A stretch of 49,843 nucleotides of DNA from Planctomycetota bacterium. GTDB taxonomy: Bacteria; Planctomycetota; GCA-002687715; DRQF01. Below, piece after piece: positions 1,372-49,664 of this stretch. The position numbers were made by a program, and so were the translations under genes. Location of the stretch: positions 1 to 49,843 of the forward strand of contig JAZGFI010000130.1 of NCBI GenBank assembly GCA_036479435.1. Reading direction: 5' to 3'. Numbering within the stretch: position 1 is the stretch's first letter; each line of letters starts with the position of its first letter. The notes beneath the pieces are model-generated. The model saw only the letters and a list, made by a program, of their open reading frames with translations, had not been told where the DNA came from and did no database searches.

Positions 1372-3027
1372 GTGACGAAGAACGAACGACAACTAGGAGC
1401 TGCCATTCGCGAGGCCCAAGCGTCTTTGGTCGCTGATGTGTCGCCAGCGTTTTTGGCCGAGCGCCTCCGTTTCTATTTCGGCATGTGTGCCGTCTTGGCT
1501 TTTGCGGCGGGCATCGCCTTTTTGGCCTTTGGGTTCAATGATGGCCGCGATTGGGTGCAGCGGGTCCTCGATACCGAGTTGACGCTGACACCTTGGTCGA
1601 CCGCCTGGTTGATGGGTTTGGGATGGGCGCTGACGCGATGGCTTGCGCTGTCCAGGCCCCTATTGTTGGGCCTGGATGCCGTCCTTTCATTGGCCTTGAC
1701 CGCCAATGTCGCTTTGAACGCGGTCTTAGGCCGCGGCATCGCCAACGGACTTTTGGTCGTCTTGTTCATGATGATGACCCAGCTCTTTCGGGCCGTCGCC
1801 ATTCCATCTTCGGGATACCGGACCGGATTGATCGCCGGATGTGCGGGCGTGATCGCTTTCTGTTCGGTCTGGCGCGAAGAACTCGTTTGGCGAAGTGTCG
1901 GTATTTTTAGCCGCGAGCCCGTGTTGCCCTTAGTTAGCTTCGGGGCGTGGATTGTGTCGGCCGTCGCCATCGCCGTGACGGCGTCGCATGTGATCTACGG
2001 TCTCCGACGTGAAATAGACCGTGCGCGCAAACTCGGTCAGTACACTTTGATCGAAAAGATCGGTCGTGGCGGCATGGGGCAGGTCTTTCGGGCCCGGCAC
2101 GCGATGTTGCGGCGACCCACGGCGGTCAAGATCTTGACGCGGGCGGATGGCGACGAGGAAGCGCTCTCGAGGTTTGAGCGCGAGGTCCAAGCGACGTCGA
2201 TGCTCACGCACCCCAATACGATTGCGATCTATGATTTCGGTCGGACTCCGGAGGGCATCTTCTACTACGCCATGGAGCATCTTGATGGCGCGAACCTACA
2301 GGAGGTTGTGGAACGCAGTGACGTGTTCTGCGAAGCCCGCGTTCTGCACGTCTTGGAGGGCGTGGCGGCATCGTTGGCCGAGGCGCACGCGAGTGGTTTG
2401 GTGCACCGAGACGTAAAACCGGCCAACATCTTTTTGTGCCACCAAGGTGGCCGCGACGATGTCGTGAAGGTTTTGGATTTTGGATTGGTCAAAGACCAGC
2501 GTTCTGAGAACGCCCCACTGAGGCCAGCGGGGATGATCCTTGGAACGCCCGAGTACTTGGCTCCCGAGGCGATCATGAATCCGTCGGGGGTGGACTATCG
2601 CGTTGATCTCTACGCCTTGGGTGGCGTCGCCTATTTTCTGTTGACGGGTCGCGCTCCCGTGGTGGCCGAGACCATCAGCGAAGCACTTCGGATGCAAATT
2701 GAAGTCGAACCGCCGCCGATCGAAGACCTGCGCGAAGGTGCTATCGATCCCGAATTGGTCGAGTTGATCGAGGACCTTCTCGCAAAGGAACCATCCCGGC
2801 GCCCCAAGACGGCCAACGAGCTGTTGGATCTGCTGGAGCCGCTTATGCAGCGGCTGACCTGGAGCGGGCGGGCGGCGACGGAGTGGTGGGACGAGTGGGG
2901 AATCAAAGTCCGCCGCAAAAGGCCAGATCCGCTGCTGCCAAACTCTCCCGGCGCGAGCGGGTTTCAGACTCTAGAAATCGACCCCACTGAGCTTCAAGCC
3001 ACCAGCCGCCGCCCCTTTTCGAGCTGA
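1372..3027 (+). CDS. Hanks-type Ser/Thr protein kinase with N-terminal multi-pass membrane domain
   Basis: About 6 hydrophobic helices, then GRGGMGQV, AVK, HRDVKPAN, DFG, GTPEYLAPE and DLYALG. Confidence 0.93.
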   Translation: MTKNERQLGAAIREAQASLVADVSPAFLAERLRFYFGMCAVLAFAAGIAFLAFGFNDGRDWVQRVLDTELTLTPWSTAWLMGLGWALTRWLALSRPLLLGLDAVLSLALTANVALNAVLGRGIANGLLVVLFMMMTQLFRAVAIPSSGYRTGLIAGCAGVIAFCSVWREELVWRSVGIFSREPVLPLVSFGAWIVSAVAIAVTASHVIYGLRREIDRARKLGQYTLIEKIGRGGMGQVFRARHAMLRRPTAVKILTRADGDEEALSRFEREVQATSMLTHPNTIAIYDFGRTPEGIFYYAMEHLDGANLQEVVERSDVFCEARVLHVLEGVAASLAEAHASGLVHRDVKPANIFLCHQGGRDDVVKVLDFGLVKDQRSENAPLRPAGMILGTPEYLAPEAIMNPSGVDYRVDLYALGGVAYFLLTGRAPVVAETISEALRMQIEVEPPPIEDLREGAIDPELVELIEDLLAKEPSRRPKTANELLDLLEPLMQRLTWSGRAATEWWDEWGIKVRRKRPDPLLPNSPGASGFQTLEIDPTELQATSRRPFSS

Positions 3028-8063: not shown

Positions 8064-8935
8064 ACGAGGAGCTGCAAGTTTGCCTGGCCGACAAACTCGG
8101 CGGTCGCATCCGCAGCGTTCAAAGCATTGGCGGCGGTGATCTCAGCGAAGCCTTTTGCGTCACCTTGGCTGACGGCCAAGTCGTGTTTGCCAAGACCATG
8201 CTGGGCGCAGACCCGACTTTGTTTTCAGCCGAGGCCGCGGGACTCGAATGGCTGCGAACGTCGACCTCCCTGACCATTCCCGAGGTCTTGGCGGTCTCGT
8301 CCCCGAAAGACAGCGAGCCGCCGTTTTTGGTTTTGGAATGGCTGGAAGCGGGAACAAAGTCAAAACACTACGGCGAGCGATTGGGAAGGGGCTTGGCCGA
8401 ACTTCACCGCGCATCACTCCCCGAGTTTGGCCTGAACCGTGACAACTTCCTCGGGCCGCTTCGGCAAGAAAACACGGCGCTAACGACATGGGCTGAATTC
8501 TACTCAGAGCGGCGCTTGCAGCTTTTGTGGAAGCGGGCCCAGAAACTCGGCCTCACGACTTCGGGTTTCGATCGAGGCATGGAAGCCCTCATCGCAAACC
8601 TCGCTGCGGCCATGGGACCACCGGAGCCACCCTCAAGACTTCACGGCGATTTGTGGTCGGGAAACGTCATGACGACCTCAACCGGCCGGCCCGCCTTGAT
8701 CGACCCCGCCGTTTACGGCGGGCACCGCGAGATCGACCTCGCAATGCTGAAGCTCTTTGGATTCGCTCACCCCGAGGCCTTTAGCGCCTACGAAGAGAGC
8801 TTCCCCCTTGCCGAGGGCGCCGACCAAAGAATTCCGCTCTATCAGCTCTACCCGCTGCTCGCGCACCTCAATCTCTTCGGCGGCGGCTACTTGGCGAGTT
8901 GCGAAAACGCTCTGCGCCAAGTTCGTTGGAAGTGA
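8060..8935 (+). CDS. Fructosamine kinase family protein
   Basis: Motifs LHGDLWSGN and LIDPAVYGGHREIDLAML. ATGA overlap with the upstream phosphatase. Confidence 0.93.
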   Translation: MNEELQVCLADKLGGRIRSVQSIGGGDLSEAFCVTLADGQVVFAKTMLGADPTLFSAEAAGLEWLRTSTSLTIPEVLAVSSPKDSEPPFLVLEWLEAGTKSKHYGERLGRGLAELHRASLPEFGLNRDNFLGPLRQENTALTTWAEFYSERRLQLLWKRAQKLGLTTSGFDRGMEALIANLAAAMGPPEPPSRLHGDLWSGNVMTTSTGRPALIDPAVYGGHREIDLAMLKLFGFAHPEAFSAYEESFPLAEGADQRIPLYQLYPLLAHLNLFGGGYLASCENALRQVRWK

Positions 8936-8945
8936 GAAGCCTGAA

Positions 8946-11900
8946 TTAAGCCGTTCCATGGGCTCGTCGGGGCGATCGGCCTCGCAGGGAGCGTCTTCGA
9001 GTTTTTGGTCTTGCTGGCCATAGCTTCACGATGAGGCAAATGAAGATGACCAGCAAGTTGATGAAGATAACGACAGAAAGCAATCCCACAGCCAAGTCCA
9101 ATGTAAGCGAATGAAAAGAAGATACTTGGCCTTGGATCAGAGCGGAGAAAAGCAACAAGGCTGCACTCGGGGCGAGCATCGTGAGCGTGATGCCGAGGGG
9201 AATCACGGATTTTTGCTTGTCGAGGAAGGCCATGAGCGTGTAGAAGAACGCGCTGAGCAAAGTCATCGCTATGATCGTAGTTTGGATATTGGACGACAAC
9301 AAGACGTCAGTGCGGAGAGCCCCGAAGGCCAACTCGGAGATCACCAAGACGACGGCCATGATGCCTAAAAACCGTGCCGGGAAGGGACCAAAGAGACGCC
9401 GGCTTTCGTCTGGCCCGGTTTGGTAGCGAAAGGCGAAGATCGAAAGGCCGGCGAACGCGGTGAGTTGGGCGAAACCCATGGCGTGCCAAGCGTAGGGAAT
9501 AGCAAAGGCGCGAAGCTCAGTGTTCGCCGCCAAGACTGTCGCTGCCGCAAAACCCGCCGGCGCGAGATACCGCCAGGGATTACGGCAGCGTCTCGCCGCG
9601 TAGGCGGAAGCCGCGGCGGCAAGTGCCCATCCAAGCGTATCGGGCAGGTAGTCGACTCCCTCAAGGTACTGGTGAAAACACGCCATGCCGACACCGGCGA
9701 GCATAAGGAACGCGGAAGCGAGGAGGCGGTAGCGCGGCAGCACCATCAGGAAAAGCGAAAACAAGAACATGGCGTAGAGCACAAAGAACAAGAAGCCGAA
9801 GTCTAATAGAGTTGCCAACTGAGACCAAAGGAGCCTCGGGCGGTGTTCTTGATCGAGGTGAAACCGGTCGATCAATCCGCCAGGGATTTCGGCCCCAGCG
9901 CGGTAAGCTGCGGCAAGTGCAGGACGAATCGGATTTCGGAAGTGAACGTGTTGGAGTTTCTGCCAAGCGAGTTCGCGTGCGGCATCTGAAGGTGAATTCG
10001 AGGCGATGTTGAGCCAAAACTGTTCGGGATTCTTGAAAGGGGCATCGTGCCCGTAGATACGAACCTGCTCAGCGCTTAGTTTCGAAATCAGTTCCCGATC
10101 GCCGGACATCAGCTCCGCAGTCCGAAGATACTCGAACCGGACCCGTTCGATTGGATGAGGTGGAGAGATGACTACCCAGCCCGCGGGATTCTCACGAGCC
10201 TTAAGGAAGAATCCATTCGGACTCTCAAAGTCTTTTGCCCATGAGTTGAGGGCGCTCAGAGCTTTTGGAACCCCGAGAAAGCAAGCGGCTCGTGAAAGAT
10301 CCGAGATGACTTCGCATTGGGCGGAACCGACGGATCGACGAGGGTTGATCGTTGTCCCCTTGGATTCTTCATGCTCTGCGATGATGCAGGCACTCAGCCT
10401 AGATATCCAGCCCTTTAAGGACCAGCTTGTCTTGGCAATCGCATCGCTACTACTGAAAACCAAGACGACTCGGCGTTCCAGCCCGCCGCGAATTCGGGTG
10501 TTGCTTCCCAAGTCTCCAAGAACGGTCATCGTGCCGATTTTGATACCGCGACGCTGACTTGCGGTGAAAGACATGTTGCGGTCTTGCTGCCGATCAAGCT
10601 TTTGAACCCTAAGCGTGAGTTTACCTTGCCGAGTCATGAGGCGAGCCCAAAGCTGGAGCTTGGAGTGGCCCGGTGTTCGCCGAATCGGCGAGAAGCCAAC
10701 AACCGGCATCGAAAAGGCGGTATCGACCCTGTTGGCGGTACTTGTTTGCAGCGAGCTTCGAGCGAAACCTCCGCTGCTGTCCGTCGCGTGATCGTGATCG
10801 GAGCGAAACTCGGCTGATGATGGCGGTACCCAGCCGAGGGAGTCGTTGATTGCCGGCGCCGTCGTGAAAGACTGGCTGACGCCATTGCCGTGGGCATCGA
10901 ACTTGAGGGCTAGGCGGGCGTAGTGCTCACTCGATGGTTGCGACGCGATTTTCCCCCCAGCTAATTCGAAAACGCCGAACTTGACGTAAACGAAAGTGTC
11001 GGACCTTCGACCCTCAAGGTCGAGAAGCTGCCGCCATCGAGACAATATCTTGTGCCCGTAGGCGCGAGCCGCGCCCGCGGGGCGATTCCAGATGATGAGG
11101 TTACTGGCGGCGCTCTCTTGGCTGGAATCGACGCCGTCGCCAGCGGCGAGGATTTCCTCGATGTTGGCGTCCGGGGATACTCTGAGCTGGTCCGACCACC
11201 GGATAATCGGGTCGGCGTCTCGATGCCGACTCCACCAAACGTAGGGATCTTCGATCTTTGGCCCACAGGCGGAAAGCGTTCGAAACCAAGGGTCAAGAAG
11301 TCGCGTGGGGTTCAAGCCCAAGATGCCTACGCGGTCTAACCTTAGCCGCCGACGGCCTGCATGGTCGAGAGCCTTGAGTTGTTCCCAGGCATCAACGATC
11401 GACTGGACGCGGGGCTCAGTCCAGTCGCTGGCCTGACGATGTGCGAAGCGATCTGGGAGATTTGCCGCAATAGCCAGGTGCATGCAGACGCTCGGAATCC
11501 AAGAGAGAGGGATCTCGCGCCGTCGAACTAGGCCTGCGAGTTCTTCACAGAGCGCGTCATCGAGGTGGCTTTCGAAGGCATCGCTACGAAGGTGTAAGTT
11601 TCTGAAGTGTCCGGCAACTGAGAAGAAACCGCGGTGCTGAGGTTCGAATTTCGAGAGCAGGTCAAAACGCGAGAACCCCGTCCCGCTCAGGACTTGGCGC
11701 GCCCACCTACGGACTAGCAGGTTATGGTCGTCGAAGAGCTGGATGATTTGGCGCTCGACGTGGCCCTCACGAGCGAGCCAGTTCGAACGTGGGCTAAAAA
11801 ATCCGAAGATGTTGTGGCCACGAGGGTGAGTTCGATTGAGCCGCTCGATGGATTGTTCGTTCGAGATCTGCTGTCCAGAGGCGATCTCGGAAGCGATGAG

Positions 11901-13382
11901 TTCGACGACCAATCGCGCACCCAAGACCCAAGGCCTTTGTCTGGCGTTGGTTTGGCCCAGATTTTTCGAATTCGCCCTTAGCTGGTTGGCTTCGCGAAGC
12001 GTCTCCTGGAGAAGCTCGGCGGCTTCCTTGGCTTTGTTGGCATTCCGCAAGCCCTTGGCTTTGGCCATCCGGCCTTCAATAATGCGGTCGAATAGGAAGT
12101 CGTCACTGGGATCGTCTGCGAAGGCAAGTTCATAGGCGTCGAGCGCGCCCTCAGCATTTCCTGATTCCCATAGTTTGTCGCCGAGGGTGCGAGCCGTATC
12201 AGGATCGTTGCCCAGGCGCGGCAAGATCGTCACCGCGAACAACACGACCATGACCAAGGCCGAGGCGAAGGCTGCGAGCAAAGGGACGGTCTGCTTTCTT
12301 AGCTTGCGCCAAATTTTCGTGCCGAGGTCAACACGCCGGGCTTGAATGGGGAAGCCCTTCTCGAACCGGGTGAGGTCTTATAGGAAGGCATGCGCGGTCG
12401 CGTAGCGTTCGGCGGGGTCTTTTTGTAAGGCGCAAAGGCAGATGGCCTCAAGATCTGGGGGGCAACTGCGGGTGATGCTACGCGGATGCGGTGCCGCGTC
12501 GTGGATGACTTGGTGAAGAACCTGAACCGCGCTGTCACCACGAAAAGGCCTGCGGCCACAAAGCAACTCGAAAAGAACCACACCCATGGCCCAGACGTCG
12601 GTGGCCTCTCCGATCAAGTCGCTGTCGCCGCGTGCTTGTTCGGGGCTCATGTAGGCCGGCGTTCCGAGGATCTGGCCGGTTAGCGTAAGGCCTGGGTCTT
12701 GCTCGTCGATCTTTCGTACTAGCCCAAAGTCGGTGACAAAAGCGTGATCGTCATCGCCGATGAGGATGTTGTGCGGTTTTAGGTCTCGGTGGACGAGCCC
12801 TCGCTCGTGGATGTAGCTAATCGCTGAAGCAACCTGCCGCATGATGTTGACCGCGCGTGACGGCGTCATGGATCGACCTTTTTTGAGCAGGGCGTGGAGT
12901 GAGCCGCCCTCGATGAGATCCATGGTGAAATAGACTTGGCTCTCGATTTCGCCAACTTCGTGAATCGTCACGATGTGAGGATGTTGAAGTCGAGCGAGAG
13001 CCAGAGTCTCTTGGCGGAAACGAGCGAGAGAACTGGCGGACGAAAACTCACCCGATCGAAGGAGCTTGATGGCGACCTCGCGGTCTAGTGACTTTTGCCG
13101 AGCTCGAAAGACGACGCCCATCCCGCCGCGACCCAGCTCTTCGATTGGCTCGTAGTCGTCGGGGAAAGGGAAAGGCCTTAACTCGCGTTCTTCAAGTGCA
13201 GGTCCGATTTCAGGGGAGGGGTCCGCGAGTTCCTGCAGGCTTCGCAAGCCCTCAAGGCAACTCCTCACTTCTTCATGGTCGATGCCAAACTCTTGGGCGA
13301 TGGCTTCGACCTCAATGCTCTGATTCGCGTCGAGCTTAGAGAGGAGCACCTCGACCATTTCAGAAAAGCGGTCGCGGCTCAT
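8946..13382 (-). pseudogene. Membrane Ser/Thr kinase (~1478 codons) interrupted by one in-frame TAA at 12378-12380: kinase domain, TM, TPR-like and large extracytoplasmic region, C-terminal multi-TM domain
   Basis: ORFs 12378..13382 and 8946..12281 share a frame. The read-through gives ...KDPAERYATAHAFL*DLTRFEKGFPIQARRVDLGTKIWRKLRKQTVPLLAAF..., the usual post-kinase linker. Catalytic motifs are intact: GRGGMG, VAIK, HRDLKPHN, DFG, GTPAYMSPE. Confidence 0.85.
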
Positions 13383-13981
13383 GCGGATTCACCAAGGTCG
13401 CGAAGCTGTCTGGCGAGTCGAATAGCTGCCTCACCCAAGATACGGCGCACGCCGCTGGGGCTTTTTCCCGTGGTCTTGGCGATCGCGTCAAGAGTCCGTC
13501 CTTCGAAGAATCGGGCGAGGAGCACCTGCCGAATGTCGTCGGGTTCGGCTTTGAGGGCCGCGTGGATTCGATCTTTACGCTCGGAACGCAGCGCGGCCGT
13601 CTGCGGGCCCGTGACGCGATCTCTCACTCGATCCATAATCCCAGATAGCGCCTCGCGCCGCCCCGGCGAAAGGCGCTTCGCGGCGTTTGCCTTTTCGCTT
13701 CCTTGCAGACTGCGGTGTTCGATGATGCGACATAGCCACTTCAAGTAGTCGCCAAAACTGTCGATGTCCGCCTGCGGAAGGTCACGGTGAGCGGCAACGA
13801 AGGCCTCTTGGAGAATGTCCATCGAGTCGACTTCTTGGCGTAGACGAGCCCCAAGGCGTAGTCGGATGTAAGAAAGCGCTGGCTCTGCTGCGGCCTCAAA
13901 AAGCTGGGCTTGCGCTTTTTGGTCGCCGCCGCGAGCCCGGGCGATCAGGGGGTCTGTAAGGCTTGATTCCATGCTGGCCAT
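13379..13981 (-). CDS. ECF sigma-70 family RNA polymerase sigma factor, kinase-coupled
   Basis: Sigma2 region (IRLRLGARLRQEVDSMDILQEAF, WLCRI) and sigma4 HTH (EGRTLDAIAKTTGKSPSGVRR). ATGA overlap with the kinase gene. Confidence 0.88.
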   Translation of the reverse strand: MASMESSLTDPLIARARGGDQKAQAQLFEAAAEPALSYIRLRLGARLRQEVDSMDILQEAFVAAHRDLPQADIDSFGDYLKWLCRIIEHRSLQGSEKANAAKRLSPGRREALSGIMDRVRDRVTGPQTAALRSERKDRIHAALKAEPDDIRQVLLARFFEGRTLDAIAKTTGKSPSGVRRILGEAAIRLARQLRDLGESA

Positions 13982-14093
13982 CCTCCACCGGATTGAGCCG
14001 GATTTGGAGCTGTTTGCGCCAAGAAATCTCAGAAACCAGATTTATCTCTCTCGTCAGCAAGTCGCTGACCAGTCCCCAGAAGACAAAGCCAGC

Positions 14094-15125
14094 CTAGAGC
14101 CCGGCTAAGACGTCGCGGGCTTGTTGGCGGAGGGCTTCGCTGAGGTTGGGGTCGTTGGAGGCGGCGTTGAGGCGTTGGCGGTTGACGACGTCGATGTTGC
14201 GGCCGTACCACTTGATGGCTTCGCCCATGATAGCGGTTTTTCGGGGCCCGGAGACGCGGGAGAGGAAGTCGTCGATGAGCGGGCGGACGTCGCTGTGATT
14301 GACGAGAAAAAGGCCCCCTTCGAGAGCTCGCCGCATGGCCTGGGTGTTTTTTTCGTCGTTCAGGTAGGCGCGGGCCTGCTCGAAGCTCTCCTTGTCGCCC
14401 GTGCGAAGAAGTCCCCACATCGAGTTGACGCGGGCGCCCTCGTGAGGGGAGTTGGCGATGGTGTTCTTCATGGCGTTGATGGCGCCTTTGCCATCGAGCT
14501 TCATTAAAGACTGGCTGGCCCAGGCGGCGAGGTCTGCGTCTTCGGGGGCGATGGCGGCGTCGGCGAGGGCGTCCGGGACTCTTGCGTCGTCGAGCATGCC
14601 GAGGAGCTGGACGGCGAGGAGGCGTTCCTCTTTGTTTTCGCCGTCGAGCATGGCGAGGGCCATGTCGACGCCTTCGTCACCGAGGGCCTTGATCGTGTCG
14701 ACCAGTTCAGCAAACTTTTTGGGCGCAAGTATGGAGGGGAAAGTCGTCTTCGACAATTTGGCGGCGACCAATTTAGCTTCTTTCAGGCGCTGGGCGAGGT
14801 CGGCGGTTTTAGAGCTATCGTCGACGCTGGCCACGGGCTGCTCGCTGATTTCTGTGGCGGTCTTGAGGTTCTTCTCGAGAAGGGCGATCTTCTTATTCGC
14901 CGCTAGCAGATCGCCCTGGTGCATCTTCTTGGCGCTTTCGAGGCGTCCTGCACGTGCTTTGGCCTGAGTAAGCTGAGATTCAGCCTCACCGAGTTGCTGT
15001 TGCAAAGCCTCAATCTTTTCGGCCGAATTCACCTCGAGTTGGTCATTCGAGTTATGGTCTGCGAAGACAAAGAAGCCGGTGGCCAGGCCAGCTAGGATTC
15101 CGACGGTTGCGATGACGAGTTTCAT
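14094..15125 (-). CDS. Membrane-anchored coiled-coil / HEAT-repeat-like protein
   Basis: N-terminal hydrophobic anchor, a coiled-coil stalk, and helical repeats (ERLLAVQLLGMLDDARVPDAL). GGAG RBS upstream. Confidence 0.8.
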   Translation of the reverse strand: MKLVIATVGILAGLATGFFVFADHNSNDQLEVNSAEKIEALQQQLGEAESQLTQAKARAGRLESAKKMHQGDLLAANKKIALLEKNLKTATEISEQPVASVDDSSKTADLAQRLKEAKLVAAKLSKTTFPSILAPKKFAELVDTIKALGDEGVDMALAMLDGENKEERLLAVQLLGMLDDARVPDALADAAIAPEDADLAAWASQSLMKLDGKGAINAMKNTIANSPHEGARVNSMWGLLRTGDKESFEQARAYLNDEKNTQAMRRALEGGLFLVNHSDVRPLIDDFLSRVSGPRKTAIMGEAIKWYGRNIDVVNRQRLNAASNDPNLSEALRQQARDVLAGL

Positions 15126-15183
15126 GCCGTTTCTCCATCTGCACTCAGAGCCAGCGCGGCTCCTTGGTGCCTTCGAAAGATAC

Positions 15184-15209
15184 TGCGCCGCAGCTCGCGA
15201 CGGCGTGAC
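15184..15209 (-). promoter_or_regulatory. Candidate ECF-sigma promoter for the HEAT-like gene
   Basis: The minus strand reads GTCAC-N17-CGCA(GTAT). GTCAC resembles the -35 element of some ECF groups. Inference only. Confidence 0.3.
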
Positions 15210-15217
15210 GAGATTTC

Positions 15218-15772
15218 ATGATGTCGGATTTTTCTGAAACCTACCGCTTAGCTCGCGAAGGAGATCGAGATGCCTTCGAAAGCATCGTCGAGGATCTGCG
15301 CGAGCGCCTACTGCGATTCATCGATCGCAGAATGGGAGCACAGGTGCGGCGAAAATCTGAGCCCGCGGACATCTATCAGAACGTGGTCTTGACGCTTTTG
15401 GACCGTTTGTCGCGGTATCCTGGGGACCTCGGGGAAGACGAATTGCGGGGTTATGTGTTTCAGATTGCAAAGTGGAAGATTGCCGACGTCATGAAAAAGG
15501 GCACCCGAGAAGGTGGCGAGTCGCTGTTGCCCCCAGGTGAAGTTCCCCTTCCGGCGGACAGCGTAGGCCCCATTACTCGCGCCGACGAACGCCGTTGGAC
15601 CCAAGAGCAGATCGCGAGTTTGGCGGACAAGTACGCCATCGTCTTGAGGCACTACTACGTGGAGGGTGCTTCCGTAGTACAAATATCCAAGTCGCTCGGG
15701 CTTAGCGAGGACGCCGTCAAGCAGCGTCTTTCTCGGGGCCGCAATCAACTAAAGGAACGGCTCGGCCCATGA
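15218..15772 (+). CDS. ECF sigma-70 family RNA polymerase sigma factor, kinase-coupled
   Basis: AREGDRDAFE, sigma2 (DIYQNV, YVFQIA) and sigma4 (YYVEGASVVQISKSLGLSEDAVKQRLSRGR). ATGA overlap with the kinase. Confidence 0.9.
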   Translation: MMSDFSETYRLAREGDRDAFESIVEDLRERLLRFIDRRMGAQVRRKSEPADIYQNVVLTLLDRLSRYPGDLGEDELRGYVFQIAKWKIADVMKKGTREGGESLLPPGEVPLPADSVGPITRADERRWTQEQIASLADKYAIVLRHYYVEGASVVQISKSLGLSEDAVKQRLSRGRNQLKERLGP

Positions 15773-17883
15773 CCCCAGAATCGGTCGAACAGCTTTTTCG
15801 CGTCCTGTTTCTCGCGGACCTTGAGGGAGACGAACCCCGCAGTCTCGAGACCTATCGCGACCTTTTCCCCGGTCACGAGGACGTCGTCGAGACGCTCTAC
15901 GAACGTCTTTGTGAATCGGAAACGACCGGAGATCTGCGCGTCCCGGTGACGCCCGCCATTTTCCCTAGTGGTCCCGGCGACATGATCGGCCGTTTTAAAA
16001 TCTTGCGCGAGCTCGGAAGAGGCGGTCAGGCGATCGTCTACCTTGCGGCCGACGACGAATTAGGACGGCAAGTCGCCGTGAAAGTCCTCACCAAGCTTGG
16101 ACCGGGCTCCGAGGGGACTTTGCAGCGCTTCAAACGCGAAGCTGAAGTTTGCTCGCGGCTCGATGTGCCGGGGATCTGCACGGTGTACGAAGCGCACGTC
16201 GAAGGGGGTATCCCCTTCATCGTCATGCAATACATCGAAGGGATTACGCTGGCACAGCAGCTTTCGCGCCGCAACTCGACCCAGGGAGACAGCGACGACT
16301 TTGATATCAGTCTTGATGATGAAGCGGAAGATGCCTTGGCCGCTGCTCCCGACGCGACGGCGGCCGATGCTCCTGATAAACAGGAAATTGAATCTCAGCT
16401 AAAGACTTTCGAGGCGGCAGCTCAGGCCTTGGACGCGGCGCACCGCGCGGGCATCCTGCACCGGGACATCAAGCCCGGCAACATCATGGTTCAGCCCGAT
16501 AGCATGCCCGTGGTCTTGGATTTCGGCTTGGCGCGCTCCGAAGAAGAGACGCACCTTACGTTGACTCAGACGGGGGATTTCTTCGGCACTCCGGCCTACA
16601 TGTCGCCCGAGCAAATCTCCGCGCACCGGATTCGGCTCGACGAACGCTCGGATGTCTTTTCCTTGGCGGTGACGCTGTTCGAATGCCTGACCCTGCGTCG
16701 GCCCTTTGACAGCGCAAGCCGCGAAGGCATTTATCAGGCGATCTTGATGAAAGATCCGCCCAATCCTCGAAGGATCAATCCCGCGATCTCGCGAGACCTC
16801 GCCGTGGTGCTAGAAAAAGCGCTCGAAAAAGACCGCGACCGTCGCTATCGAAACGCCGGTGATCTCGCCGAAGAACTACGTCGTGTCCGGAGTTTTGAGC
16901 CCATCGAAGCTCGGCCCGCCGACCCCATTTTGCGACTACGTCGTTGGACCCAACGCCATCCCGGAGTGGCCGCCATGGTCGCGCTGTTGGCGGTGGTCTT
17001 GGGCCTGGGCTTTGCCTTCTTTTTGTATCACAGCGACAAACAGGAAAAATCCGCCGCAGCTGCGCGAGCGGAAGAAGAAGCTCGCGAGCGTGATGAGTTC
17101 TCGGCAGATGTTCGCAGGCGTGGCGAAAAGATCATCGCCATCGTCAAGAACAACCCCTTCAACCTGTTCTTGTACCAAGGCATGATCGGCACCTTCTCGG
17201 TCGATGTGGTCAAGATGGGCGAAGAGGGGAAGGCCTATGCGCGTTCTTTGGTGACGTCTGAGGAGGCTACTCGCCGAGCAGTGGCCACGATCTTGTTGCA
17301 GTACGTACCCGACAGTTCGGCGATCGACGACTTGCGCGACTTAGCTCTGAATGACAAGGATGACCTCGTGTCCTCGTCTGCTTCGAGATCCTTGATCTTT
17401 CACCCTCATGAATCCACGGCCAACGCTCAGCGCGAGATAAGAGACGAGGTTCTGTCGCGAATCAAAAACAAGCCAACCTCCTACCGTGGTGAGGCCGAAT
17501 TATCCGTGCTCGGAAACTCAATGGCTGGGCTGGTGGTGCAAGGAGATCCCCTGGTTGCCGGCGGGATGGTTGAGCTCTTCAAAGACGGGACTTTTCAGTC
17601 TCCTACCCTTGGGCTGATGGCCAACTTCCTGTTGGCTCTCGGCGGGAGGGATGTCTTGGTCTTTATCGACTACCTCAGGGATCGCATTATCAACGGTGAC
17701 ACGGTCTTGGCACTTTACTTTGATCCGGTCCTGGCATACTACAAAAAGCTCGGCGACACGATGGGGCTCGACCGCTTGGAGGAACTCGCGAACGACGAGC
17801 GCTTGTCCGCGGAGATGAAGGAAAAGGTCGTGAAAGCGCGTGACGAATTACGTGAGACTTTGAACCTTGGTACGCCCGACTAG
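15769..17883 (+). CDS. Single-pass membrane Ser/Thr kinase with a C-terminal HEAT-like extracytoplasmic domain
   Basis: Motifs GRGGQA, VAVK, HRDIKPGN, DFG and GTPAYMSPE; TM segment VAAMVALLAVVLGLGFAFFLY; helical C-terminal domain. Confidence 0.93.
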   Translation: MTPESVEQLFRVLFLADLEGDEPRSLETYRDLFPGHEDVVETLYERLCESETTGDLRVPVTPAIFPSGPGDMIGRFKILRELGRGGQAIVYLAADDELGRQVAVKVLTKLGPGSEGTLQRFKREAEVCSRLDVPGICTVYEAHVEGGIPFIVMQYIEGITLAQQLSRRNSTQGDSDDFDISLDDEAEDALAAAPDATAADAPDKQEIESQLKTFEAAAQALDAAHRAGILHRDIKPGNIMVQPDSMPVVLDFGLARSEEETHLTLTQTGDFFGTPAYMSPEQISAHRIRLDERSDVFSLAVTLFECLTLRRPFDSASREGIYQAILMKDPPNPRRINPAISRDLAVVLEKALEKDRDRRYRNAGDLAEELRRVRSFEPIEARPADPILRLRRWTQRHPGVAAMVALLAVVLGLGFAFFLYHSDKQEKSAAAARAEEEARERDEFSADVRRRGEKIIAIVKNNPFNLFLYQGMIGTFSVDVVKMGEEGKAYARSLVTSEEATRRAVATILLQYVPDSSAIDDLRDLALNDKDDLVSSSASRSLIFHPHESTANAQREIRDEVLSRIKNKPTSYRGEAELSVLGNSMAGLVVQGDPLVAGGMVELFKDGTFQSPTLGLMANFLLALGGRDVLVFIDYLRDRIINGDTVLALYFDPVLAYYKKLGDTMGLDRLEELANDERLSAEMKEKVVKARDELRETLNLGTPD

Positions 17884-49235: not shown

Positions 49236-49664
49236 TCAGGCATCGCGGCCATAGCGGCGCGAACGGCCTTTTTTGATGTCGGACCGTTGTTTTTTTTGTT
49301 CCAAGCGCCGTCGGACCGATCCCCGCGTCGCTCGCGTCGGGCGGCGTTTGCGTTCGACGAACAGGGCTTCGCGAAGGATCTCAATGAACCTCTCGACAAC
49401 CAAGCGCCGGTTGCCACTCTGCGAGCGCTCCTTTTGAGAGACGACGCGGAGGATTCCATCTTTTGAAATCCTGGTGCTTAACTGCTCGTGGAGACGAGCG
49501 CGCTGGGAGGCGGTCACGCTAGCGGAGTGCTCGAGGTCAAAAAGCAAAGTGACGCGCGTTTCGACTTTGTTGACGTTCTGGCCGCCGGGTCCGGAAGCAG
49601 TTCCCGTTTCGAATTTGAGGTCTTCGTCGGGAATCGTCAAGTTTGGAAGGACGACAATCGGCAT
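49236..49664 (-). CDS. arfB: Alternative ribosome-rescue peptidyl-tRNA hydrolase (ArfB/YaeJ)
   Basis: SGPGGQNVNKVETRV, SQKERSQ..N and a basic C-terminal tail. Start at ATG 49664. Confidence 0.95.
   Translation of the reverse strand: MPIVVLPNLTIPDEDLKFETGTASGPGGQNVNKVETRVTLLFDLEHSASVTASQRARLHEQLSTRISKDGILRVVSQKERSQSGNRRLVVERFIEILREALFVERKRRPTRATRGSVRRRLEQKKQRSDIKKGRSRRYGRDA

Follow-up and report, generated by a model that had tools for sequence, protein, structure and literature searches.

A receptor kinase ectodomain related to the product of the divergent neighbouring gene at an ECF sigma factor locus of Planctomycetota

Introduction

Why should the extracytoplasmic part of a receptor kinase be related to the product of the gene beside it? 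The question is raised by a three-gene locus at positions 14094–17883 of a 49,843-nucleotide stretch of Planctomycetota DNA (contig JAZGFI010000130.1 of assembly GCA_036479435.1), hereafter the window. It is labelled here as contig C130, and its genome as G000; other genomes carry G- and loci L- labels. A gene for a membrane-anchored protein, here called the free protein, is read leftward, and genes for an extracytoplasmic function (ECF) sigma factor and a Hanks Ser/Thr receptor kinase are read rightward; together they are referred to as the module. Sequence comparison confirmed that the kinase ectodomain and the free protein share a family-specific HEAT-like domain. That the three genes form one feedback unit, a shared-ligand titration loop, is a reading to which we give about an even chance. 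The genes and domains compared are the following.

14094..15125, minus strand: gene of the free protein, 343 residues (open reading frame (ORF) list; coordinates as in the preliminary description)
Residues 3–21 of the free protein, minus strand: N-terminal hydrophobic anchor or signal, with a helical stalk next (hydropathy)
About residues 121–343 of the free protein, nt 14765–14097, minus strand: HEAT-like domain (profile match, structure model)
15218..15772, plus strand: ECF sigma factor, 184 residues (Pfam and TIGR matches)
15769..17883, plus strand: Hanks Ser/Thr receptor kinase, 704 residues, with the kinase domain at residues 77–360 and a transmembrane segment at residues 400–418
17131..17850, plus strand: kinase ectodomain, residues 455–694, a diverged paralogue of the free protein's domain (alignment, profile, trees)

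Homology and structure of the shared domain

BLASTP aligned residues 142–340 of the free protein with residues 478–694 of the kinase at 26% identity over 218 columns (E 3e-6). The Smith–Waterman score of 111 lay far above the scores of shuffled sequences (34 ± 5) and was equalled in 0/2000 trials with either of two shuffle types. Among the 8627 ORFs of the genome with at least 150 residues, the ectodomain and the free protein were reciprocal best matches, the next best score being 75. A non-circular profile was then built from 33 free or anti-sigma-type homologues, with kinases and module proteins excluded. It matched the kinase ectodomain at 90.6 bits over positions 9–225 of about 227, compared with 28.6 bits for the next ORF of the genome and 48.6 bits for the best domain of 106 long multi-HEAT proteins; the relationship thus goes beyond generic HEAT similarity. 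A word-indexed protein search returned the query itself as the sole match.

The preliminary description had aligned the two proteins by hand, and its counts were reproduced: two ungapped blocks again gave 19/60 and 14/57 identities, and the third gave 7/23 when counted from its Asp, or 8 with the preceding Tyr. The shared topology proposed there was found as well. Judged from hydropathy only, each protein has one transmembrane-type segment (residues 3–21 in the free protein, 400–418 in the kinase), then a helical stalk (about 100 and 35 residues, respectively) and then the domain. The HEAT-like domains are probably periplasmic.

The free protein was modelled as an all-helical solenoid with a predicted local distance difference test (pLDDT) value of 92.5. 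Its nearest folds in Foldseek were alphaRep/HEAT protein binders (TM-score about 0.6); all matches were generic HEAT, alphaRep or armadillo structures, without a specific natural match. ESM Atlas likewise returned generic HEAT clusters only, and no NCBIfam family covers the free or anti-sigma proteins. The solenoid fold agrees with HEAT_2/PBS-lyase-like repeats; the two window proteins score 18.8 and 16.5, below the Pfam cut-off of 27.7, and their homologues mostly exceed it. Arg168, Asp180, Asp194, Ser204, Asn234 and Gly238 are conserved in the free and anti-sigma copies and were retained in 5/5 kinase copies. These residues, compared as positions in the sequence, may line one binding groove.

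Conservation and evolutionary history of the module

The same layout, with the free gene leftward and the ECF and kinase genes rightward, recurs in G002, G003, G004, G006, G008 and G007, that is, in 6/8 genomes of the family; kinase-fused and stand-alone copies are therefore co-located beyond this genome, as the preliminary description had required of the pair. In G007 both outer genes are truncated by contig ends, and in G008 the kinase is apparently split across two contigs. The G003 kinase (L009 8613–10666) was found in frameshifted pieces between seemingly intact flanking genes, owing to either decay or an assembly error. In the order, 15/23 genomes match the domain profile. The ECF orthologue was detected in 7/23, which are exactly the genomes with the module, so that it co-occurs with the kinase copy. 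Among the other genomes of the order, a free-type copy alone was found in seven, in two of which the contig is short; an anti-sigma-type fusion is present in two, and no match was obtained in the remaining seven. No full-length second, regulator-fused copy was found in 5/5 free-only genomes searched at E 1e-8.

In a tree of 36 rows, from which the G003 kinase fragment was omitted, five kinase copies formed one clade (support 84/78; 100/97 for four of them) within the family clade (95/95). The kinase clade was also recovered in a tree of 19 rows (70/95). A recent local duplication, which would unite the two copies of one genome, was rejected for G002 (approximately unbiased test, p-AU 1e-74); for the G000 pair, such a clade was neither favoured nor rejected (p-AU 0.14). 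Own neighbour was the best of the six module free copies for 1/6 kinase ectodomains only, and the nine best matches of the G000 ectodomain were all free or anti-sigma copies, with no kinase copy among them. The expectation that the paired copies would be each other's closest relatives thus failed, which fits one old duplication. Orthologous kinase ectodomains are 22–44% identical, vs. 31–69% for the free copies, and the mean identity between the two kinds is about 23%. Most simply, these sequences can be explained by a single old duplication, after which the kinase copy drifted faster; the G000/G003 line may instead have acquired its copy separately.

The preliminary description had offered a kinase-less co-receptor or decoy as the role of the free protein. 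Since the free copy is the more conserved one and is present without a regulator-fused copy, this cannot be its whole role. Probably the free protein came first, as a working effector, and regulators were built from it repeatedly: once, at this locus, by duplication onto a kinase, and elsewhere by fusion behind an anti-sigma/FecR-like protein in which an internal in-frame start is retained.

Alternatively, the kinase could long ago have taken the closest convenient periplasmic domain, that of its target gene, and could now sense something unrelated, the two genes being linked by transcription only. The fast drift of the kinase copies, the lack of kinase copies among the nine best matches in G000 and the many shuffled accessory domains of planctomycete kinases (PMC11032199; cited, like all papers below, from part of its text) are consistent with this explanation. 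We regard it as improbable: the conserved polar positions are retained in all kinase copies, the same domain is coupled to several unrelated ECF lineages with the free form usually kept, and a specific paralogue in the neighbourhood was found for just one of the kinase tails of the genome. The last result comes from a scan of 35 tails in G000, each compared with its neighbours only, where this module was the 1/35. A general use of twin ectodomains in G000 was rejected: 2/35 tails had a neighbour match, and the second resembled a generic FHA-type domain (name read from the sequence) present in many copies. In G333 (L062 3250–9317), a 1339-residue kinase ORF follows directly downstream of a free-type gene, but its tail is without the domain.

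The ECF sigma factor and the predicted promoter

The ECF sigma factor matches Pfam Sigma70_r4_2 (41.7 bits, cut-off 25.7) and weakly region 2 (E 0.012), as well as TIGR02937 (58.1, cut-off 42.9); its score with TIGR02984 is 57.8, far below the cut-off of 183.75. Sub-cut-off matches to a Planctomycetaceae ECF model, and the commonest taxon of the top ESM Atlas cluster, agree with an origin in Planctomycetota. The 184-residue protein is short, with sigma2 and sigma4 only, as in group 4. Its sigma4 motif KQRLSRGR resembles, as we presume, those of ECF41/42. In a FastTree reconstruction the module ECFs formed their own clade, placed near kinase-linked ECFs with weak support. The stop codon of the ECF gene and the start codon of the kinase gene overlap by 4 nt. 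The kinase scores 125.8 bits with Pkinase, and its catalytic motifs are intact (Gly loop, VAVK, HRDIKPGN, DFG, SPE). The sites bearing on regulation are listed below.

15184..15209, minus strand: GTCAC-N18-GCA, directed towards the free gene and predicted to be an ECF promoter (conserved motif)
nt 15575–15577, plus strand: linker Thr120 of the ECF sigma factor, candidate phosphosite (invariant in the aligned module ECFs)
Residue 47 of the ECF sigma factor, plus strand: Ser47, candidate phosphosite (Ser/Thr in 4/6)
14087..14106, minus strand: hairpin resembling a terminator, where the free gene ends (pattern match only)

The motif GTCAC-N18-GCA faces the free gene at 7/7 module loci and was found at 0/16 free genes outside the module. 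Its exact spacing is kept in six module intergenic regions that are otherwise 48% alike. It occurred in 6/6 aligned loci, and shuffled regions reached at most 3/6 (0/300 trials equalled it); with one genome per genus, it occurred in 4/4. G007, which belongs to the same genus as G004 and was held out of motif discovery, carries the motif as well. TGTCACA is a described ECF -35 element (PMC7826278). A -10 role is also conceivable for GTCAC, like the one it would have upstream of the anti-sigma-type ECFs; with either assignment it points at the free gene. These findings favour the earlier suggestion that the free gene is probably ECF-regulated, and we infer that the module ECF controls the motif. 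The hairpin suggests a one-gene transcript. The motif also occurs at window positions 49528–49553 (minus strand), probably by chance in view of 148 matches genome-wide; as these show no excess at spacer 18, no regulon was derived.

Alternatively, the free gene could be outside the control of this ECF, the motif serving another factor or a divergent promoter and the cluster merely reflecting descent from a duplication. The shortness of the motif, its alternative -10 reading and an overlap of GCA with a possible opposite-strand -10 element (seen by eye; a sigma-70 scan found none) leave some room for this. The exact spacing in 7/7 loci amid otherwise dissimilar intergenic DNA and the absence of the motif where the ECF is missing make it very improbable.

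The linker Thr is invariant in the six aligned module ECFs and is also a Thr in G007; EcfK requires a linker Thr, Thr106 (PMC13147305). Phosphorylation of the ECF is predicted, probably at Thr120 or possibly at Ser47. The G003 ECF has Cys at position 47.

Anti-sigma-like relatives and a nested start

A profile search of 1.84 billion representatives was evaluated for its best 150 matches. The single full-length matches among these fell mainly into three groups, comprising free proteins (about 320–345 residues), proteins of 480–560 residues, and two kinases. The proteins of the second group, from Planctomycetota and Myxococcota and not considered in the preliminary description, appear anti-sigma-like in sequence and are encoded downstream of an ECF gene, which is directly adjacent wherever the contig reaches; they bear the domain at the C-terminal end. 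The FecR match in these relatives was above the cut-off in 4/16, just under it in one and absent in 11. In a FastTree reconstruction their ECFs were placed outside the module ECF lineage, in at least three lineages, which suggests that the coupling to the domain is convergent.

These relatives resemble FecR-like anti-sigma factors (PF04773) in an anti-sigma-like N-terminus, one transmembrane segment and a FecR-like beta region. They differ by an inserted Shine–Dalgarno sequence, start codon and hydrophobic stretch that would yield a second, free-type protein. In 17/19 aligned proteins the insertion immediately precedes the final FecR-like strand. The nested start is Met in 16 and GTG in one, mostly followed by a basic residue and then the hydrophobic stretch; after it come a stalk and the domain, as in the free protein. 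L060 and L024 are without the insertion (2/19), and so is L025, outside that alignment. P0113, a database protein of 330 residues, has the nested Met as its first residue and still contains the FecR-like strand; it is either a freed short form or a fragment gene call.

The DNA of 11 genes was examined at the nested site (L080 and L083 end before it, and three loci are close kin). Shine–Dalgarno pairing was strong, averaging -9.2 kcal/mol at the nested starts; 100 further in-frame ATGs averaged -3.5 kcal/mol. Codon choice favours the signal, Gly being encoded by GGA in 13/16 cases at the site vs. 36/446 elsewhere. A model of the long form, of low confidence (pLDDT about 45–60), shows the nested stretch as a loop plus a beta strand. 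The long form would therefore have one transmembrane segment, and the short form would use the nested stretch as its anchor. It is likely, from these sequence features, that anti-sigma systems unrelated to the module use a concealed internal start to make both the sensor and its free counterpart from a single gene. Nested starts as a general trait of G000 ECF operons were rejected, only three weak candidates having been found.

A conserved CGAAGGA was found upstream of the anti-sigma-type ECF in 6/7 loci checked (L074, L076, L077, L079, L081 and L082), and the full pattern CGAAGGA(A/T)-N13-(G/A)TCAC upstream of the own ECF in 5/7. This pattern is likely an autoregulated ECF promoter, and autoregulation would entail more of the short product on induction.

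Proposed mechanism

In the shared-ligand loop, one periplasmic protein or peptide would be the ligand of both the kinase ectodomain and the free protein. Its binding would activate the kinase, which would phosphorylate and thereby activate the ECF; the phosphorylated ECF would transcribe the free gene, and the additional free protein would handle and titrate the ligand. Both the shared ligand and the negative feedback by titration are inferences from the features described above.

Several observations weigh against this loop. The promoter motif is short, shows no genome-wide excess and was found post hoc, and the related genomes are non-independent, so that the p-values overstate the significance. 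In the module ECFs the sigma2.2 motif has stayed acidic (EPAD/EAED/EVDD), unlike the STTA of EcfP (PMC8999054), and Ser/Thr occupies position 47 in 4/6 only. The kinase ectodomains have drifted from their orthologues and from the free copies and show no pair-specific similarity; they may sense something else now. As for the nested start, 4/11 genes have another in-frame ATG with a stronger Shine–Dalgarno sequence, and distant anti-sigma proteins of G039 and G072 have neither a nested start nor a clear free copy, with L025 also lacking the start.

A broader proposal is that sensing with a copy of the own product is a general ECF design. One membrane-anchored HEAT-like protein would have been made the sensor of its own expression repeatedly, by duplication onto a kinase and by nesting of the whole gene in an anti-sigma gene. 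In the nested case a single stretch would form a FecR beta strand of the long product and would serve the short product as its signal anchor. Through competition with the sensor, or by binding to it, the free copy would close the negative loop. We put this forward tentatively, as a possibility somewhat short of an even chance. Such sensor-plus-free feedback wiring would be undescribed.

The main rival reading is direct contact. The free copy would be a kinase-less co-receptor or an inhibitor that binds to the ectodomain or stalk of the kinase, both descended from a self-associating domain, and the kinase would in this way count the free protein present or assembled. Both proteins have the same topology with a helical stalk, the long and short products of nested systems would share a membrane and carry the same ectodomain, and the PknS kinase was suggested to be restrained by its periplasmic domain (PMC13147305). 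The absence of pair-specific similarity, the much shorter stalk of the kinase and the 5/5 genomes with the free protein and no regulator-fused copy make direct contact rather unlikely. Complex prediction for the two ectodomains gave ipSAE values of 0.01 and 0.00 (mark 0.32); as controls were not folded, these values are uninformative either way.

Comparison with known systems

Sensors related to ligand-binding effectors are represented by BlaR1 and its likeness to class D beta-lactamases, and in CpxP/CpxA an induced periplasmic protein damps its own sensor. Both have other folds and transducers, and neither is known as an ECF–kinase unit with an adjacent ectodomain paralogue.

The closest resemblance is to ECF59/ECF62 of Planctomycetes (PMC7826278), which have an ECF, a Hanks kinase with one transmembrane segment at position +1 and no anti-sigma factor; the likeness is one of layout. 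In the module the ectodomain is HEAT-like, not WD40 or TPR, and is paralogous to a divergent gene; the available text describes ECF62 without a conserved promoter motif, and the module has one (PMC7826278). WD40 repeats and an N-terminal zinc finger, found in the largest ECF62 subgroups, gave no Pfam match on the module kinase, which matched HEAT_2 weakly instead. The ECF43 pairs PknT/EcfP and PknS/EcfK (PMC8999054, PMC13147305) are alike in the kinase beside the ECF, in the candidate linker Thr, comparable to EcfK Thr106, and in a helical-repeat periplasmic domain. The sigma2.2 motif of the module stays acidic, unlike that of ECF43, in which a non-acidic S/T motif (STTA in EcfP) takes the place of DAED (PMC8999054), and the parts of the ECF43 papers available mention no ectodomain paralogue among the targets (PMC8999054, PMC13147305). 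By its ECF59/62-like layout, the module, which lacks the ECF43 motif, is predicted to function like kinase-linked ECF systems.

In Brassica SLG/SRK (PMC3616866), too, a receptor Ser/Thr kinase is encoded close to a copy of its own ectodomain without a kinase, the product of an ancient duplication. This is an analogy only, from a plant, with an unrelated fold and no sigma-factor loop; moreover, SLG is described as kinase-derived, whereas in the module the free form looks older (PMC3616866). We found no description of a twin-ectodomain module or of the nested start in the literature, with most subscription journals outside coverage.

The literature examined assigns essentially no inputs or targets to the many kinase-linked ECFs found in Planctomycetota. 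Since its promoter and phosphosite are predicted and its proposed target is one gene only, the module could be rebuilt in a laboratory host. It also suggests a rule for guessing the ligand of a sensor, which is to ask what its free twin binds. The nested-start anti-sigma genes, if true, would show, in conserved form, how a single bacterial gene can yield a regulator as well as an effector, a case overlooked by annotation.

Neighbouring genes and other loci

Neighbours of free genes were recorded at L014 2605–6788, L018 4979–7036, L011 4338–7787 and L020 9744–11318. Genes of the MscS family (downstream, G001) and of SPFH/flotillin (upstream, G017) lie on the same strand as the free gene, and S9 and S46 peptidase genes are convergent with free genes. 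The MscS and SPFH/flotillin neighbours weakly hint at a membrane or envelope role.

G000 encodes 50 kinase-domain ORFs, 17 of them within 1.5 kb of an ECF-profile match, and its contig C99 carries a kinase/phosphatase/FHA-like cluster (8141–17316).

Directly behind the free gene, a second ECF (13379–13981) and kinase occupy window positions 8946–13981 on the minus strand; this locus is absent from the syntenic G003 region. A 334-residue kinase ORF is followed, after one TAA at 12378–12380, by an in-frame ORF of 1111 residues with a transmembrane segment, a large domain without a Pfam match and several further transmembrane segments. The two ORFs are likely one interrupted receptor kinase of about 1480 residues (error or pseudogene). 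A further kinase is encoded elsewhere in the window at 1372–3027.

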